Source: Escherichia coli
Lineage (GTDB): Bacteria > Pseudomonadota > Gammaproteobacteria > Enterobacterales > Enterobacteriaceae
Strand: one strand, 5' to 3'
NCBI RefSeq assembly: GCF_003334765.1
Contig: NZ_QOWT01000047.1
DNA length: 21,426 nt
Shown: positions 12,428 through 17,481 of the stretch, in pieces
Layout: every line of letters begins with the position of its first letter
Numbering within the stretch: the stretch's first letter is position 1
Translations under genes and position numbers: made by a program
The notes under the pieces: generated by a model
What the model saw: the letters and a program-made list of their open reading frames with translations, nothing else
What the model was told of the DNA's origin: nothing
The model's database searches: none

Positions 12428-12991
12428 TTAAAATGGAATGCCGTCTGCAGGATTTCGTCTTCTGGAGTTTTTAACTGATTTTGTTTTACTCCAGGCACGA
12501 TAAAAATTAAACGAATTGGCAAAATCTTCTGTCTCCAGTCTGGATTTTCTGAATTTATCCATCAGATCTTCATTGAAACGACGAGGAATTCCCTTAACGC
12601 ACAAGTTTGAATTCAGATATACCTGATTATCTATGGTGTCACGAATAAGTATTTTTTTTCCAAATAACTCTTTGAATGCACGTGAAACATTTGATTTATT
12701 CAGCCCAAGCTCTTTGGCAGTACGTGACTGTGAAAAATCAGGAATAATATTACCGTAATCAATGGCTGAGAAGAGATAAATCACAATTCTAAATGCTGTA
12801 GGCGTCAAATCCATTCTGGCGAGTGTCGCCATATTACCTTTAAATACCATTGAGAAATCGTCCTTGAAGGACGTCTTTTTATAGCTGGTTGCTTTAATTT
12901 TTATTTCTTCTAGATCTTCGGGCATAACCTCTAATGCTTCTGCAATAATGGATTTTTGTTCTTTAGTTAATACAACACTTGTGATTGACAT
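12428..12991 (-). CDS. Winged helix-turn-helix DNA-binding protein (187 aa), RepL-like / plasmid replication-associated candidate
   Basis: AGGAG RBS 5 nt upstream of ATG. Central segment …TPTAFRIVIYLFSAIDYGNIIPDFSQSRTAKELGLNKSNVSRAFKELFGKKILIR… has typical wHTH spacing. A divergent AT-rich region and tandem direct repeats lie 460-600 bp upstream. Family is inferred from motif pattern, not from a search. Confidence 0.6.
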   Translation of the reverse strand: MSITSVVLTKEQKSIIAEALEVMPEDLEEIKIKATSYKKTSFKDDFSMVFKGNMATLARMDLTPTAFRIVIYLFSAIDYGNIIPDFSQSRTAKELGLNKSNVSRAFKELFGKKILIRDTIDNQVYLNSNLCVKGIPRRFNEDLMDKFRKSRLETEDFANSFNFYRAWSKTKSVKNSRRRNPADGIPF

Positions 12992-13452
12992 AATGGCTCC
13001 TTTTTTATTGTTGTGATTACAGATATGGCATATTTAATTTATTTGTCAATGGTTTTGATGATATTATTTTAATTATATCTTATTTGAATTTTTTATCCGT
13101 TCTTTGGTGGTGGTAATAGGTTGTAAAATTTGAAACGAGGGGTGCTAAATTTAACCATCACCTGTTATGTGATTGATAATTTTTGGTGCTGAAATTAACA
13201 ACGGCATATTTTGTATAATCATATGATTTTATTAGATAATTTTTGATTTTGATCTGCAAGATAAAAGAGTGATAAAGAAATAAGAAACCACAGTTTTGCA
13301 TTTGATCGATACTCAAGGCCTTGGTGTACCTGATGAAAACATTTTTATTATTGCTTTTCTTAAATAATATCATTTGTAAATTGAAGCCTGCGCAACTGTG
13401 TGTTACGCCCCATTGGGCTTCAGAACATCACTATAGTGTTTTCAGTCAGTAT

Positions 13453-13600
13453 AAATACGCTTCGCGCACGAGTTCACAGTATTTAGGTTTACTGTCATTA
13501 AAAATACGCTTCGTGCAGAAGTTCAGAAAAATGGGGTTAGCTGTCAGCACAAATACGCTTCGCGCAAAAAAAAATCAGGAGGCTAAGTTGATCGAGAAAG
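13453..13600. repeat. Three direct repeats at exactly 49-bp spacing sharing a 16-bp core AAATACGCTTCG(C/T)GCA (iteron-like)
   Basis: Cores at 13453-13468, 13502-13517 and 13551-13566. Units 1 and 2 also share AGTTCA and CTGTCA blocks further along the 49-bp unit; unit 3 keeps only the core. Non-coding context. Confidence 0.7.
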
Positions 13601-14030
13601 CGAACACAGATACATGATTTACCCGTTTGCTGACTACGGCTCACGCCGGGACCCTTCGGAAAAACCCTTTCTGCTTCAGCGAGTGAGTGCTGCGGGCACT
13701 CAGAGGCGCTGCCAGGGAGACAAAATTAAGTTTTTCAACTGTTTGGTAAAAATAATTAACATTTATAGGTAGTCGGGGCGTAAGCCAGTGCGTAGCACGC
13801 TCTCAAAAAATATTCCTGTGGGTTTCTTATCTGCAATAGGGAAATAACTCAGATAATTGATATATGAAAAAACAATACAATCGGGAAGACACAACTTTAG
13901 CACAGTAAAAGCTATTTGTATTTATGAGGAATAAAATATATATGAATAATAAAATATTTTTATTTTGCTATTGATTTTAATTTTTAAGATGATAGTACTT
14001 AATTATAAAAACAAAATAATGGAGGAAATT

Positions 14031-14456
14031 ATGAGTGCTATTAATGTGTTATCTCAGGAGGAAAAATTTATACATGTTGTTGATAAATTTATAACCCATA
14101 ATCACAACGGCGTTAATAACAATGTCTTTTATAAAAAACTTTATGTTCTCTTCGCCGGATATCATCTGAAGTATTTTTATTCACGGGCGCAATATCGCAA
14201 TTCGTGTTATCACGTTGATAATATCATGCAGATGTTTATGGGTGTCGTTTCTACCCTGAAGACCCCTCTGCTCAGGCAACTCGCAAACAGTGACACATTG
14301 CTGCATTGCCTGAATTCGCTCGTGAATTATATTTCAGGCAATCTGGATGAAGCAGAGCACATTTATGCTGATTTACTGGCACAGTATGAAAAGAAACGCA
14401 TTGCACGTTCTCTGGCTTATACACCACCAGGATCCGTGGTCAGGAAAAGACTGTGA
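14031..14456 (+). CDS. Hypothetical protein (141 aa from ATG 14031; ORF track begins at 13965)
   Basis: GGAGG RBS 8 nt before ATG 14031 (MSAINVLSQ…). C-terminal tail …EKKRIARSLAYTPPGSVVRKRL resembles the tail of the ankyrin protein at 17683-18636. Confidence 0.5.
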   Translation: MSAINVLSQEEKFIHVVDKFITHNHNGVNNNVFYKKLYVLFAGYHLKYFYSRAQYRNSCYHVDNIMQMFMGVVSTLKTPLLRQLANSDTLLHCLNSLVNYISGNLDEAEHIYADLLAQYEKKRIARSLAYTPPGSVVRKRL

Positions 14457-14539
14457 GACATCGGAAATGCGCCGGACAAGGCAGAGTATGGCAGAGTGAC
14501 ATAAAAGCAGTCGTTTCCCGCAAGATATTACCGGGCATT

Positions 14540-14573
14540 AAAAAGGCAGGATCCACCGATTTGGTGTCCTGCC
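14540..14573. terminator. Bidirectional terminator hairpin between convergent genes
   Basis: GGCAGGA-(15-nt loop)-TCCTGCC perfect 7-bp stem, flanked by AAAAA on the 5' side (T-run on the minus strand) and a T-rich stretch on the 3' side. Confidence 0.5.
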
Positions 14574-14597
14574 TGGCGGGATTATTTTATTGTGGTC

Positions 14598-14918
14598 TTA
14601 CTTATCAACGACCTGCCAGCCATCATCTGTTTTGACCAGCTTGACAGCCGCTGTGCGTTTTTCGTTATCGACAACAGCTGTTACATTGCATTTATAGCTT
14701 TTATCCGATAGTTTTTCGCAGTCGTGTTTTTTGACTGATTTTAACTTCCGCAGCATGTCAGGCGTGATATCGTTTCTCGCTATGGATTTAACGATGGCAT
14801 TCGTCTGCTCCACGACCTTATTCATCGCAGTGTAAATATCCTGCTCAGACGGTTCACTGGTGCAGCCGGTCAGCAAAAAAATGGACGCAATGAGTGTGGT
14901 AAATGCATATGTTTTCAT
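14598..14918 (-). CDS. Small lipoprotein (106 aa)
   Basis: Signal peptide with lipobox LLTG|C (MKTYAFTTLIASIFLLTGC). Mature part ends …AAVKLVKTDDGWQVVDK. Confidence 0.7.
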   Translation of the reverse strand: MKTYAFTTLIASIFLLTGCTSEPSEQDIYTAMNKVVEQTNAIVKSIARNDITPDMLRKLKSVKKHDCEKLSDKSYKCNVTAVVDNEKRTAAVKLVKTDDGWQVVDK

Positions 14919-14944
14919 AAAATAATCCCAGACGGTAGAGTACG

Positions 14945-15343
14945 TTATTGAAAAAGGCCGGTTTTCATCTTGCTGTTGTTTTCAGAGAACGTCCACTTGC
15001 TGACGGTTTCGCCTTTAAATTCGATTTCCAGCGTTTTGGCCTGCGTCTGTGAACCCCCGGTCAGCAGTCCAATCACGGGAATGAATGTGGTGGCATCAAA
15101 CTGATTGTTGTCCATCGAATAAGTCCATTGTTCATTGCCACTATCAAGTGTAGTTTTGGTTTCGGGCTGACCGAATGCGGTAATGATTTCTGATTTCGTT
15201 GTTTTATTTTTGATGATTTTCGACTGCAGACTTTGTGATGTTTCTTTTTTTAGATGCTGGTTGCCTGATGTTGAACAGCCAGAAATAAGTAAAGAAGAAA
15301 TAAAAAACACAGAAATCATGAATCTGTTCATAAGTTTTCTCAT
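14945..15343 (-). CDS. Lipoprotein (132 aa) with BamE/SmpA-OmlA-like motif
   Basis: Lipobox LISG|C. Segment …EIITAFGQPETKTTLDSGNEQWTYSMD… resembles the BamE-type LGxP…W.Y motif. Possible alternative start at M5 (15331). Confidence 0.65.
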   Translation of the reverse strand: MRKLMNRFMISVFFISSLLISGCSTSGNQHLKKETSQSLQSKIIKNKTTKSEIITAFGQPETKTTLDSGNEQWTYSMDNNQFDATTFIPVIGLLTGGSQTQAKTLEIEFKGETVSKWTFSENNSKMKTGLFQ

Positions 15344-15656: not shown

Positions 15657-15733
15657 GACTCCGTAGCCTGATTTAAGGTGATGTATTTTTGAACATTTTC
15701 GATGAATGAACTGCTTTAGTAAAATTGCTTGTA

Positions 15734-15806
15734 CCGATCGATGGATCTCAGGCGATAGGTTATATCTATTATAACTAGATTATCGATATATAAAAACGAT
15801 CGATAT
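15734..15806. promoter_or_regulatory. Cluster of three GATC sites within four ATCGAT palindromes, 80-150 bp upstream of the zinc-ribbon/lipoprotein gene trio
   Basis: CCGATCGATGGATCTC at 15734-15749 and TATCGATATATAAAAACGATCGATATC at 15780-15806. Dam-site clustering in a promoter-proximal region; a regulatory role is inference. Confidence 0.3.
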
Positions 15807-15841
15807 CTTATTGACTATCACTAAAGTATGGACTAGCTAAC

Positions 15842-17077
15842 TTATGGTGCAGGATGGTTGTTGTTTTTAAATGATTGTTCTTTATTGGTATTTGTTGTCA
15901 TGGGATGACAGGGTGTCAGAATATGTAGGTGGAGGATTTGGTGGAAAGGATGTGCAGTGGCATGTAACAGAGACATGCCTCTGCGCCTGAGAAGTGCCAC
16001 AATATGGACGAGCAATACAAGCCATGAATACAGACGACGCTGGCGGGGTATCTGACGAGCTGTATTGTGCAGATTGCTCCTGAGCTGGATGATACCCACT
16101 GTCTCCTGTTGTCTTTCCAGACGAATTTTTTCTTCAAGCTGATGGATTTTCTCCAGAATCGTTTCCCGGTTTGCAGCCTGCTCTTCAGACTCGCATGATG
16201 GCACTGGCACTGGCACTGGCACTGGCACTGGCACTGGCACTGGCGCGGTTGTAGGTTCTATTGGCCTCTGGGCTTCTTTCAGTAAACTCAGATGCTCAGG
16301 CGTAAAATCAATCAGTGCTTGCAGGGAAGACCAGCCATATTTTTTACCCAACTGAGATGCTTTAAAGGCAATACCCTGGTATTGAAATGAAAATCCACTC
16401 ATTTTACCCGTAGTGGCGATATTGGGTTTGCAGGTCACTCCTTCCTGTTCCAGTAAGCGAACAAAGGTTAGTAAATCGGGATGGTGTGTTAATGCATTGT
16501 CGAGCAGGGCCTGCAACAGTGACTTAGGGCAGGGAGCTGCTGTGCGTTCTGCCATCATCAGTTCATTACGGGAAGGCTTCCTTTTATCCTGGCGGCTACT
16601 GCCGGTTACACCCGTAGTTTCGGTGAGGCCGTGTACTCTCTCCAGCTCACTGATAATCCGTGTGCCGATAAGATTTTCATTTTTCCCCAGGTACAGTTTT
16701 CCACCGACCATGTTAATACGACTTGCAATGATATGAATATGCTGCCCATCCGGATCATCGTGCATGATATAGCAGCGAAGATGGGTGTCAGTGAAGCCCA
16801 TTCGGGCCATATAATCGTCAGCGAATGCTGCCCACTGTCTGTTTGACAGTTTCTCACCCTTTGGCAGGCGAAGTGAATTATGCCAGACAGGTTTGGCGAC
16901 ATCGGGACGCAGCAGTCGGGTGCCTTCAAATTCACTTATAAGCTCAGCAGCAGTGCTACCCGTCATGTTGCCACCGATGACATAAGGCGTGATTTTGTGG
17001 TGAGAACCTGACTTCAGGCTATAAATAACCACACCTGTGAATTGTTTACCCCTTTTTATTTTCTGCATGCCTTTCAT
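15842..17077 (-). CDS. Plasmid mobilization relaxase (MobA/VirD2-like relaxase domain), 411 aa
   Basis: N-terminal candidate catalytic Tyr (…VVIYSLK…) and histidine-triad motif HDDPDGQHIHIIASRIN (HxDxDxxHxHxxxxxxN). Start ATG overlaps the mobC stop (ATGA). Central (PV)7 linker. C-terminal about 80 aa is unusual in composition and the gene may be 3'-degenerate. Confidence 0.8.
   Translation of the reverse strand: MKGMQKIKRGKQFTGVVIYSLKSGSHHKITPYVIGGNMTGSTAAELISEFEGTRLLRPDVAKPVWHNSLRLPKGEKLSNRQWAAFADDYMARMGFTDTHLRCYIMHDDPDGQHIHIIASRINMVGGKLYLGKNENLIGTRIISELERVHGLTETTGVTGSSRQDKRKPSRNELMMAERTAAPCPKSLLQALLDNALTHHPDLLTFVRLLEQEGVTCKPNIATTGKMSGFSFQYQGIAFKASQLGKKYGWSSLQALIDFTPEHLSLLKEAQRPIEPTTAPVPVPVPVPVPVPVPSCESEEQAANRETILEKIHQLEEKIRLERQQETVGIIQLRSNLHNTARQIPRQRRLYSWLVLLVHIVALLRRRGMSLLHATAHPFHQILHLHILTPCHPMTTNTNKEQSFKNNNHPAP
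16201..16242. repeat. Perfect hexanucleotide simple-sequence repeat (GCACTG)x7, in-frame in the relaxase gene (encodes PVPVPVPVPVPVPV)
   Basis: Seven perfect tandem copies read directly from the sequence. Confidence 0.9.
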
Positions 17078-17481
17078 GGGTCTGACTCCAGAAATGTTGA
17101 GGGAATAAGGTGATCCCTGAGAGTTTTGATTTGTCTGCGCAGGGCGAAGAGTTCTGTACGGGTCAGTTCGCTGTCAGGGCTTTTGCTGTCGAGATGACTC
17201 AACAGGTAGTTTAAATCCTGTGAAAGGCTGCCAAGTTTTATCCATGCTTCACGATTGATTTCTGGCAGAACCGGCGGGAGTTTATTCAGGGAAGCCATCC
17301 TGAGCCATTCTCCTTTTTTATACTGACCTCTTTTACTGTCGAGAATAATTAATTCTTCTTCATTTAATCTGACACTGATGCAGTGATGTCGTATTTCATT
17401 CTCAGGAAATTTGTCAGTATGGAATTTACCGCGTTTTGATACTCTGGTTATATCATCATCATTACTCATGTCACTGTTCAT
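17074..17481 (-). CDS. MobC-family mobilization/relaxosome accessory protein (135 aa)
   Basis: Segment …WIKLGSLSQDLNYLLSHLDSK… fits the MobC (L.kiGnNlNQiar) motif. Sits immediately upstream of and translationally coupled to the relaxase. AGGAT RBS. Confidence 0.7.
   Translation of the reverse strand: MNSDMSNDDDITRVSKRGKFHTDKFPENEIRHHCISVRLNEEELIILDSKRGQYKKGEWLRMASLNKLPPVLPEINREAWIKLGSLSQDLNYLLSHLDSKSPDSELTRTELFALRRQIKTLRDHLIPSTFLESDP

Follow-up and report, generated by a model that had tools for sequence, protein, structure and literature searches.

The closest described relatives of the replicon treated here are the small cryptic plasmids of the pHW126-like family, in which the replication module upstream of rep comprises a palindrome resembling a single-strand initiation (ssi) signal, a conserved region of about 20 bp, four iteron-like repeats of 20 bp and operator repeats; replication proceeds without the palindrome, but its loss leads to a raised copy number and to multimers (bioRxiv 10.1101/2022.12.05.519187; PMC6854812; PMC2831885). 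The Rep protein of pHW126 and RepM of pIGMS31 relax supercoiled DNA, the pIGMS31 nick has been mapped just upstream of the conserved region, the origins of pIGMS31 and pIGRK contain Rep-activated promoters of unknown product, and in small plasmids of this family the origin of transfer (oriT) adjoins the replication origin (bioRxiv 10.1101/2022.12.05.519187; PMC6854812; PMC2831885). Here, a related replicon is described in a chromosomal island of Escherichia coli, from a stretch of 21,426 nt (assembly GCF_003334765.1, contig NZ_QOWT01000047.1; hereafter the window, whose positions are used throughout), where an initiator gene of this family borders a gene-free gap of 1 kb (12992-14030) that carries a GC-rich, hairpin-bearing segment (13633-13800). 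This segment is almost unchanged across seven genera, and it is tentatively read as a cis-acting accessory DNA element of the replication origin.

Anatomy of the hairpin segment

The original prediction, made from the letters of the window, placed a GC-rich structured segment inside AT-rich DNA at 13621-13800, and this description stands: the GC content is 0.47 over the 300 nt of 13501-13800 as against 0.24-0.33 in the flanks, the imperfect hairpin at 13677-13711 reads directly as CAGCG-AG-TGAGTGC-TGCGG-GCACTCA-GAGG-CGCTG, exactly in the sequence and at the coordinates given, and the other GC blocks are present and conserved (13637-13662 and 13775-13800). The statement that the segment holds no plausible open reading frame (ORF) is likewise borne out, the sole ORF over it (13614-13772, 52 aa) being unconserved and lacking its ATG in lineages L008 and L015; the relatives of this stretch differ by indels of 1 nt and 15 nt. 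The functional unit covers about 13633-13800, with a possible extension to 13830, and its parts are as follows.

13633-13662, no strand assigned: left conserved block, kept in all lineages
13677-13711, no strand assigned: two-tier hairpin, its outer stem of 5 bp (CAGCG/CGCTG) separated by an asymmetric internal loop from an inner stem of 7 bp (TGAGTGC/GCACTCA), which is capped by a loop of 5 nt
13712-13774, no strand assigned: variable AT-rich spacer of 63 nt, 15 nt shorter in the L008/L017 lineage; identity 0.27-0.51
13775-13800, no strand assigned: right conserved block, with GGGGCGTAAGCC at 13777-13786 (the second, inverted GGC-N3-CGCC motif) and then the mini-hairpin GTGC-GTA-GCAC (13788-13798)

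The loop of the main hairpin occurs as TGCGG, TGTGG, TGAGG or TTTGT, and the internal loop varies too; in the outer stem a plus-strand G.T is found in 10 of 39 distinct sequences, at one position only (G-C to G.T). In the left block, GGCTCACGCC at 13638-13647 forms one arm of the inverted GGC-N3-CGCC motif pair and is overlapped by a small hairpin, CCGG-GACCCT-TCGG (13646-13659), whose pair 13649-13656 is, on the plus strand, G.T in 22 cases, A-T in 13 and G-C in three. On the opposite side of the main hairpin, GGCGTAAGCC (13777-13786) is the near-complement of GGCTCACGCC. The outer GGC and CGCC parts of both motifs are almost invariant and their central triplets change independently, being complementary in two of the nine lineages examined and showing one to three mismatches in the other seven; this independence fits copies of a recognition motif better than the two strands of an RNA helix. 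The mini-hairpin, of the form GC-GNA-GC, keeps its stem while its loop is GTA, GAA or AAA, and in L018 it reads GGC-GTA-GCC, a double-sided change that preserves the pair. The spacer taken alone is unstructured (z about 0), with the exception of a Yersinia-like lineage. A XerCD (cer/dif) site at 13787-13823 was considered and discarded, since by eye, against the consensus sequences, a fit was obtained for the XerC-like arm only (8 of 11 bases) and not for the XerD arm.

Conservation and distribution

Fifteen distinct sequences were gathered without the hairpin as a probe, comprising E. coli BLAST variants and 10 genome loci found via a neighbouring protein; 46 further loci were obtained by a degenerate pattern search of metagenome and viral contigs, in which the stems were fixed by the pattern, and the distinct full-length segment sequences total 39. 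Both hairpin stems are unchanged in all 15 sequences collected independently of the hairpin; the inner stem never varies among the 39, which for the pattern-derived loci is true by construction. Eight divergent versions of the gap were aligned, and five of these lineages entered a conservation profile in which the bins of 13669-13708 reach an identity of 0.86-0.89, the top of the 1-kb gap together with 13269-13288, the gap mean being 0.53. The peaks of this profile, with unalignable DNA in between, are the following (mean identity).

12989-13048: rep promoter and ribosome-binding site, 0.73-0.86
13129-13188: conserved block, 0.66-0.70
13249-13288: A/T-rich block, 0.78-0.88
13389-13428: nested hairpin region, 0.68-0.78
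13629-13708: the segment of the original prediction, 0.66-0.89
13769-13828: conserved block, 0.66-0.70
about 13989: promoter of the 141-aa gene, 0.83

The sequence of the segment is fixed while the flanking proteins fall to 37-66% identity and the neighbouring repeats diverge; judged from these alignments, it is under strong purifying selection across seven genera. The whole gap is present in 152 of 5,426 complete E. coli genomes and a 186-nt core of it in 182 of them, all copies being chromosomal and nearly all genomes having a single one; strains E24377A and MRE162 are among the carriers. Outside E. coli, the hairpin segment was found at 10 loci in nine other species of six other Enterobacterales genera and, at an unchanged position, in the 46 metagenome or viral contigs. 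The hairpin was not found in any other genomic context, all 46 extra loci sharing the same synteny, and a dispersed repeat of the REP, ERIC or MITE type is ruled out by the single copy per genome. The gap region gave no BLAST match in plasmid and phage collections, and the hairpin motif is missing from the four small plasmids compared.

These data bear directly on the idea that the segment is a chance GC-rich palindrome or the functionless remnant of a decayed gene, the latter having been one of the options of the original prediction. The hairpin alone is indeed no stabler than shuffles of the same composition, as would be expected of a chance palindrome; nevertheless, it is kept in 152-182 E. 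coli genomes, in 10 loci of nine other species and in 46 contigs at a constant position, it has the top identity of the gap, and indels that are not triplets occur, all of which refutes an explanation that is left with hardly any credibility. The hairpin is considered more than chance because of its comparative conservation, not because of thermodynamics.

The initiator gene and the putative origin region

The gap is bordered on the left by the gene whose homology gives the region its interpretation.

12428-12991, minus strand: rep, 187-aa winged-helix replication initiator of a pHW126/RepL-related family, by BLASTP homology
13033-13060, minus strand: sigma-70-like rep promoter with a TTGACA -35, read from the sequence and kept in all lineages

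In BLASTP, Rep is 40% identical to RepM of pIGMS31 (E 1e-30) and 30% identical to Rep of pHW126 (E 7e-15), and homologues at 45-47% identity are encoded by enterobacterial plasmids of 2.7-2.8 kb, in some of which rep is the only annotated ORF; two entries labelled as plasmids, OX345050 and OX345049, are short linear contigs and were left out of the comparison. The relatives of Rep contain the PF13730 and PF05732 (RepL) domains, some more distant ones being annotated as RepL, while Pfam gives the 187-aa protein itself weak matches only (HTH_36, Phage_rep_O and Rep3_N). The transcription of rep runs away from the segment. Upstream of rep, the gap contains three further features.

13257-13292, no strand assigned: A-rich block (T-rich in the rep orientation), GCAAGATAAAAGAGTGATAAAGAAATAAGAAACC; identity 0.78-0.88, one of the two top scores in the gap
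13384-13424, no strand assigned: second conserved nested hairpin, GAAGCC-TGCGCAAC-TGTGT-GTTACGC-...-GGCTTC; DNA fold z -2.47
13433-13580, no strand assigned: three direct repeats at 49-bp spacing, core AAATACGCTTCGCGCA (13453, 13502, 13551); three matches against 0.21 expected

The original prediction had the segment adjoining iteron-like repeats, and repeats do lie there, though they are atypical of iterons in their 49-bp spacing and in a copy number that runs from one to three by lineage: the window has three copies, other lineages have two and L015 has one, and L008, L017 and L018 have none that can be recognized. They are located in a conservation trough and diverge along with Rep. On the minus strand the core AAATACGCTTCGCGCA reads GCGAAGC, a motif that folds into very stable DNA mini-hairpins. 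In the nested hairpin, the outer stem GAAGCC/GGCTTC is replaced by GAAGTC/GACTTC in L008 and L017, a compensatory change. The A-rich block may be the counterpart of the pHW126-like conserved region; the resemblance of GCAAGATAAAAGAGTGATAAAGAAATAAGAAACC to GGTTTCTTCTTTCTTATTTTC of plasmid L073 is by eye only, local alignments being at chance level, and the T-rich block that resembles GCAAGATAAAAGAGTGATAAAGAAATAAGAAACC precedes the iterons in plasmids of 2.7 kb whose Rep is related.

An origin function is proposed for the region because the neighbouring gene is homologous to experimentally characterised initiators and because the DNA upstream of rep has the same kinds of parts as in the plasmid family, including palindromes at 13384-13424, 13677-13711 and 13788-13798. 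The segment occupies the distal, upstream part of the gap, where the plasmids carry the ssi-like palindrome. The single-strand origin or nick-site structure that had been among the options of the original prediction thus gains support from the context, with a pHW126/RepL-family initiator adjacent and an ssi-like palindrome beside iteron-like repeats in the plasmid relatives.

DNA element or RNA

The segment could in principle be the gene of a small, structured RNA some 170 nt long, such as a replication primer or a copy-number control RNA, and a non-coding RNA had been the first option of the original prediction. In its favour, the pIGMS31 and pIGRK origins hold Rep-activated promoters without a known product, an 11-bp helix closes the minus-strand fold, and the long-range pair 13642-13782 alternates between C-G, T-A and a minus-strand wobble. 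The evidence against it is as follows. The covariance-model search that had been suggested returned no Rfam match at the gathering threshold nor at E up to 10; a consensus scan of 13600-13900 found neither a sigma-70 promoter nor an intrinsic terminator; and the RNA fold of the 221-nt region is unremarkable against shuffles (z -0.71 and -1.41). The comparative alignment, which had been proposed as a check for compensatory changes, gave a covariation of about zero on both strands (RNAalifold terms of 0.03 and 0.4 kcal/mol), and the main stems do not vary in the 39 distinct sequences, so that no compensatory changes support a consensus RNA structure. The helices also disagree on the strand. G.T wobbles, from which the folded strand may be read, occupy the plus strand in the outer stem (10 cells), the third tier (44 cells) and the CCGG hairpin (22 cells), but the minus strand in the long-range pairing (18 cells); the helix of that pairing is mismatched at one to three central positions in seven of the nine lineages examined. 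An RNA gene is therefore very doubtful, and invariance at the sequence level without covariation should not be taken as a basis for calling one.

These observations show a palindromic DNA element in which the sequence itself, beyond its pairing, is under selection; selection on sequence rather than on pairing is the signature of a DNA site read by a protein, unlike that of a structured RNA. One way in which this might be realised is as a set of duplex binding sites, the inverted GGC-N3-CGCC motifs and the palindromes being read by a regulator of the island or a partition-type protein such as the 141-aa protein encoded next to the gap. The conservation of sequence rather than pairing, the independent variation of the central triplets and the constant adjacency of the 141-aa gene agree with such sites, but that protein is only 37-42% identical in lineages with an unchanged hairpin, it has no recognisable DNA-binding domain and its structure model is unusable, and the two motifs lie 130 bp apart, which makes duplex sites of this kind decidedly improbable.

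In support of a palindromic unit at the DNA level, the 171-nt unit of the window is significantly structured as single-stranded DNA, folding better than dinucleotide shuffles with a z of -2.98 on the minus (rep-sense) strand and of -1.73 or -2.05 on the plus strand, and 12 divergent homologues give values from -1.5 to -5.3.

A candidate accessory element of the origin

The reading favoured here, with a confidence that stays tentative, is that the segment 13633-13800 is a cis-acting DNA element in the origin region of the pHW126/RepL-type replicon, an ssi-like or single-strand-origin-like accessory element that would act in an extruded or single-stranded form. Negative supercoiling of the excised circle, or displacement of one of its strands, would let the palindromes fold, these being the two-tier hairpin with its invariant stems, the mini-hairpin of the GC-GNA-GC form and the pair of inverted GGC-N3-CGCC motifs. 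A conserved factor, which could be the priming machinery of the host or the catalytic part of Rep, might then recognise the folded structure, and this recognition would start or organise the synthesis of the complementary strand; a role in priming or in terminating replication is thereby presumed. In this reading the element would correspond to the ssi-like palindrome that pHW126, pIGRK and pIGMS31 carry without needing it for replication. That the hairpin is invariant while the repeats diverge with Rep suggests two readers: an element-specific, diverging DNA-binding domain may read the repeats, and a conserved partner, for instance a catalytic site or the priming machinery of the host, may read the hairpin.

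Several results weigh against this origin element. The hairpin alone, as a GC-rich 58-mer, folds as single-stranded DNA no better than dinucleotide shuffles (z -0.58 and -0.69), the folding signal of the whole unit is alike on both strands, and the wobble evidence is split between the strands, so that a strand specificity is not demonstrated. In Smith-Waterman comparisons the segment stays within the shuffle distribution both against the ColE1 primosome assembly site and against the IncQ2 ssi/oriT region, and local alignments of the gap with the origin DNA of pHW126, pIGMS31 and two closer 2.7-kb plasmids are at chance level. The layout differs as well: the plasmids have four 20-bp repeats at 22-bp spacing, whereas the island has three at 49-bp spacing in variable copy number, and the island repeats lie between the segment and the A/T-rich block instead of between the block and rep. 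Finally, the oriT that the island requires has not been located elsewhere with certainty.

The same surroundings could also accommodate a nick locus of a rolling-circle double-strand origin. On the model of pMV158-type origins, Rep would bind the direct repeats and cut the DNA within the extruded hairpin or next to it. Relaxation of supercoiled DNA by pHW126 Rep and pIGMS31 RepM, together with the mapped nick in the pIGMS31 origin, fits such a locus, as does a layout known from rolling-circle replication families, with lineage-specific repeats about 110 nt from an invariant GC-rich hairpin. The pIGMS31 nick, however, lies outside the hairpin loop, just upstream of the conserved region and near the iterons and rep; the hairpin loop is the variable part here; and one lineage has a single repeat and three have none recognizable. 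Cleavage at the hairpin is on balance improbable.

Returning to the accessory element, an extended version of it can be conceived, of comparably low probability, in which the segment is an undescribed dual-purpose origin module whose two opposed GGC-N3-CGCC single-strand motifs, one per strand and placed around the invariant hairpin, would let a conserved host factor prime in both directions. If true, such a module would act in the vegetative replication of the excised circle and again, once the island has entered a recipient by conjugation, in the synthesis of the second strand, and it would represent a new sequence class of priming signals, unrelated to the ColE1, G4 and IncQ types.

Mobilization genes and the position of oriT

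The island encodes its own mobilization functions, 2 kb and four genes away from the segment.

15842-17481, minus strand: mobilization operon, with a 135-aa MobC-like protein (17074-17481) and a 411-aa relaxase (15842-17077)

The relaxase contains the three-histidine motif HDDPDGQHIHI, and its nearest plasmid relatives are IncQ2-type MOBP relaxases (43% identity); a run of Pro-Val repeats, PVPVPVPVPVPVPVP, lies between the catalytic domain and the C-terminal part. With relaxases of 55-100% identity, the segment is present at every relaxase-bearing locus; this association is not specific to the relaxase, and the segment never occurs without the rest of the module.

That the segment itself is the oriT of the island is unlikely, though it is the alternative to which the most serious weight must be given. 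In that case the invariant hairpin would be the assembly site of the relaxase and its MobC-like partner, which would nick a conserved sequence close by, for instance GCAC-TGGCTTACGCC on the minus strand, which resembles ACTGGCTTA of ColE1. The usual site of an oriT, upstream of the mobilization operon, is here unconserved but for a promoter, so that oriT would have to lie elsewhere; the conservation of the segment across relaxases of 55-89% identity matches what is expected of a nic region; inverted repeats are followed by conserved flanks; the nine bases ACTGGCTTA shared with the ColE1 transfer region are a real identity; and in the small pHW126-like plasmids oriT adjoins the replication origin. 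On the other hand, the segment is not beside the relaxase operon, and a ColE1-type nic site was rejected, the three-histidine relaxase having no similarity to ColE1 MbeA and the whole-region alignment with ColE1 being at chance level. The IncP-type nic core is YATCCTG|Y, after an inverted repeat, and no ATCCTG core is present on either strand of 13380-13900, hence none in 13621-13800; the copies of ATCCTG at 14552 and 15855 were dismissed as nic, since the first belongs to an arm of a terminator, the second closes the coding sequence of the relaxase, and neither is conserved, and TATTCCTG at 13811-13818 is only loosely conserved. The similarity of the segment to the mob-upstream/ssi region of the nearest, IncQ2-like plasmid relatives, including the shared CCGAAGGG and GGCGTxxGCC, is not significant, being equalled in 41 of 300 shuffles. 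An equally conserved block beside the relaxase gene (15657-15841) is, moreover, at least as good a candidate.

This block spans the 185 bp that separate the relaxase gene from the next one (91 aa; both on the minus strand) and is extremely conserved among loci in which relaxase identity is no higher than 55-58%; within it lie an invariant stretch of 31 nt, ATCGATCGGTACAAGCAATTTTACTAAAGC, and inverted repeats rich in GATC, and the block may be either oriT or a Dam-sensitive regulatory leader.

The surrounding island

The module around the segment is a chromosomal integrative mobilizable element. Its order is constant, from left to right: the 187-aa helix-turn-helix protein (minus strand), the gap, the 141-aa protein, three small proteins, the relaxase and the MobC-like protein. 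In the window the island adjoins a tRNA gene with a CAT anticodon (1569-1644; tRNA-Met according to ARAGORN versus tRNA-Ile in the RefSeq annotation) and the ypjA/ehaD autotransporter gene (4550-9259), two landmarks by which one insertion point is placed in the ileY-ypjA region; other strains have this module at mutS, beside a tyrosine integrase. The gene to the right of the segment is the following.

14031-14456, plus strand: gene of the conserved 141-aa protein, invariably on the right-hand side of the segment; a promoter of its own lies at about 13985-14020

The 141-aa protein is all-helical, it has no match in Pfam, NCBIfam or PHROG, and its AlphaFold model (pLDDT 48) is unusable. Beyond it, between the convergent 141-aa and 106-aa genes, 14457-14597 contains a conserved hairpin, AAAAAGGCAGGA...TCCTGCC, whose inner stem changes in a compensatory manner between lineages; this gives it the appearance of a bidirectional terminator. 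The 106-aa and 132-aa proteins that follow (14598-15343) have the look of small lipoproteins, with weak matches to Cor superinfection exclusion and Lpp-type lipoproteins and a strong match to phrog_3135, and by analogy with ColE1 they might have entry-exclusion functions.

The cargo of the island varies by strain and includes, among the relatives, retron Eco8, type I restriction, an N6 methylase, DUF4209, ankyrin-repeat genes and a RelA/SpoT-domain gene; differences in cargo and in decay are seen among loci L001, L005, L008, L024 and L025. In the copy of strain H3 an IS3 element is inserted into the 132-aa gene, and the copy of strain TC24 has an IS1 insertion with the N6 methylase gene beyond it, no relaxase gene being annotated within the stretch examined.

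Comparison with known systems

Much of the defence and virulence cargo found in enterobacterial genomes resides on integrative mobilizable elements, whose replication and post-transfer establishment are known for few families. The literature searched holds no description of the present island family, nor of a pHW126/RepL-type replicon inside a chromosomal mobilizable element; a replicon hitherto studied only in tiny cryptic plasmids is thus placed inside a widespread chromosomal island, and its most constrained cis-elements, as pinpointed here, provide precise targets for mapping the replication origin (oriV), the single-strand origin and oriT.

Compared with single-strand initiation signals and single-strand origins, such as the PriA-type ssiA of ColE1, G4-type origins and ssiA/ssiB of IncQ plasmids, the segment likewise presents a GC-rich imperfect hairpin beside an origin; ssi hairpins are thought to be active only as single-stranded DNA. 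In the oriV of IncQ plasmids two oppositely oriented signals lie beside the iterons, to which the inverted GGC-N3-CGCC pair of the island would correspond. The segment nevertheless has no significant sequence similarity to ColE1 ssiA or to the IncQ2 ssi, the island module contains no plasmid-type primase, and a strand specificity is not demonstrable from the sequences.

The segment resembles the oriT of MOBP/MOBQ elements in its conserved inverted repeat, the 3' flanks of which are conserved as well, in belonging to an element that also encodes a relaxase and a MobC-like protein, and in the nine bases identical to ACTGGCTTA of ColE1. It differs from such regions in lying away from the relaxase operon, in having no ATCCTG-type core, in being dissimilar to the oriT region of the nearest relatives and in having a competitor in the conserved block beside the relaxase gene.

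With the replication (REP) module of pHW126, pIGRK and pIGMS31, the island shares a homologous initiator and, upstream of rep, non-coding DNA of the origin type, in which GC-rich palindromes stand out from an AT-rich background and direct repeats occur together with one short block of very high conservation. It departs from these plasmids of 2.3-2.9 kb in its shorter Rep of 187 aa and in a replicon that sits in a chromosomal integrative mobilizable element.

At the level of the whole element, the nearest parallels are the PIMEs (bioRxiv 10.64898/2026.01.12.698999) and SGI1. Unlike these, the island has a RepL/pHW126-type replicase instead of RepA and no trbJ/trbL or traJ genes, and its oriV and oriT are known as candidates only; like them, it is a chromosomal island with AlpA, its own replicase, an iteron-type oriV, its own relaxase and a defence cargo.

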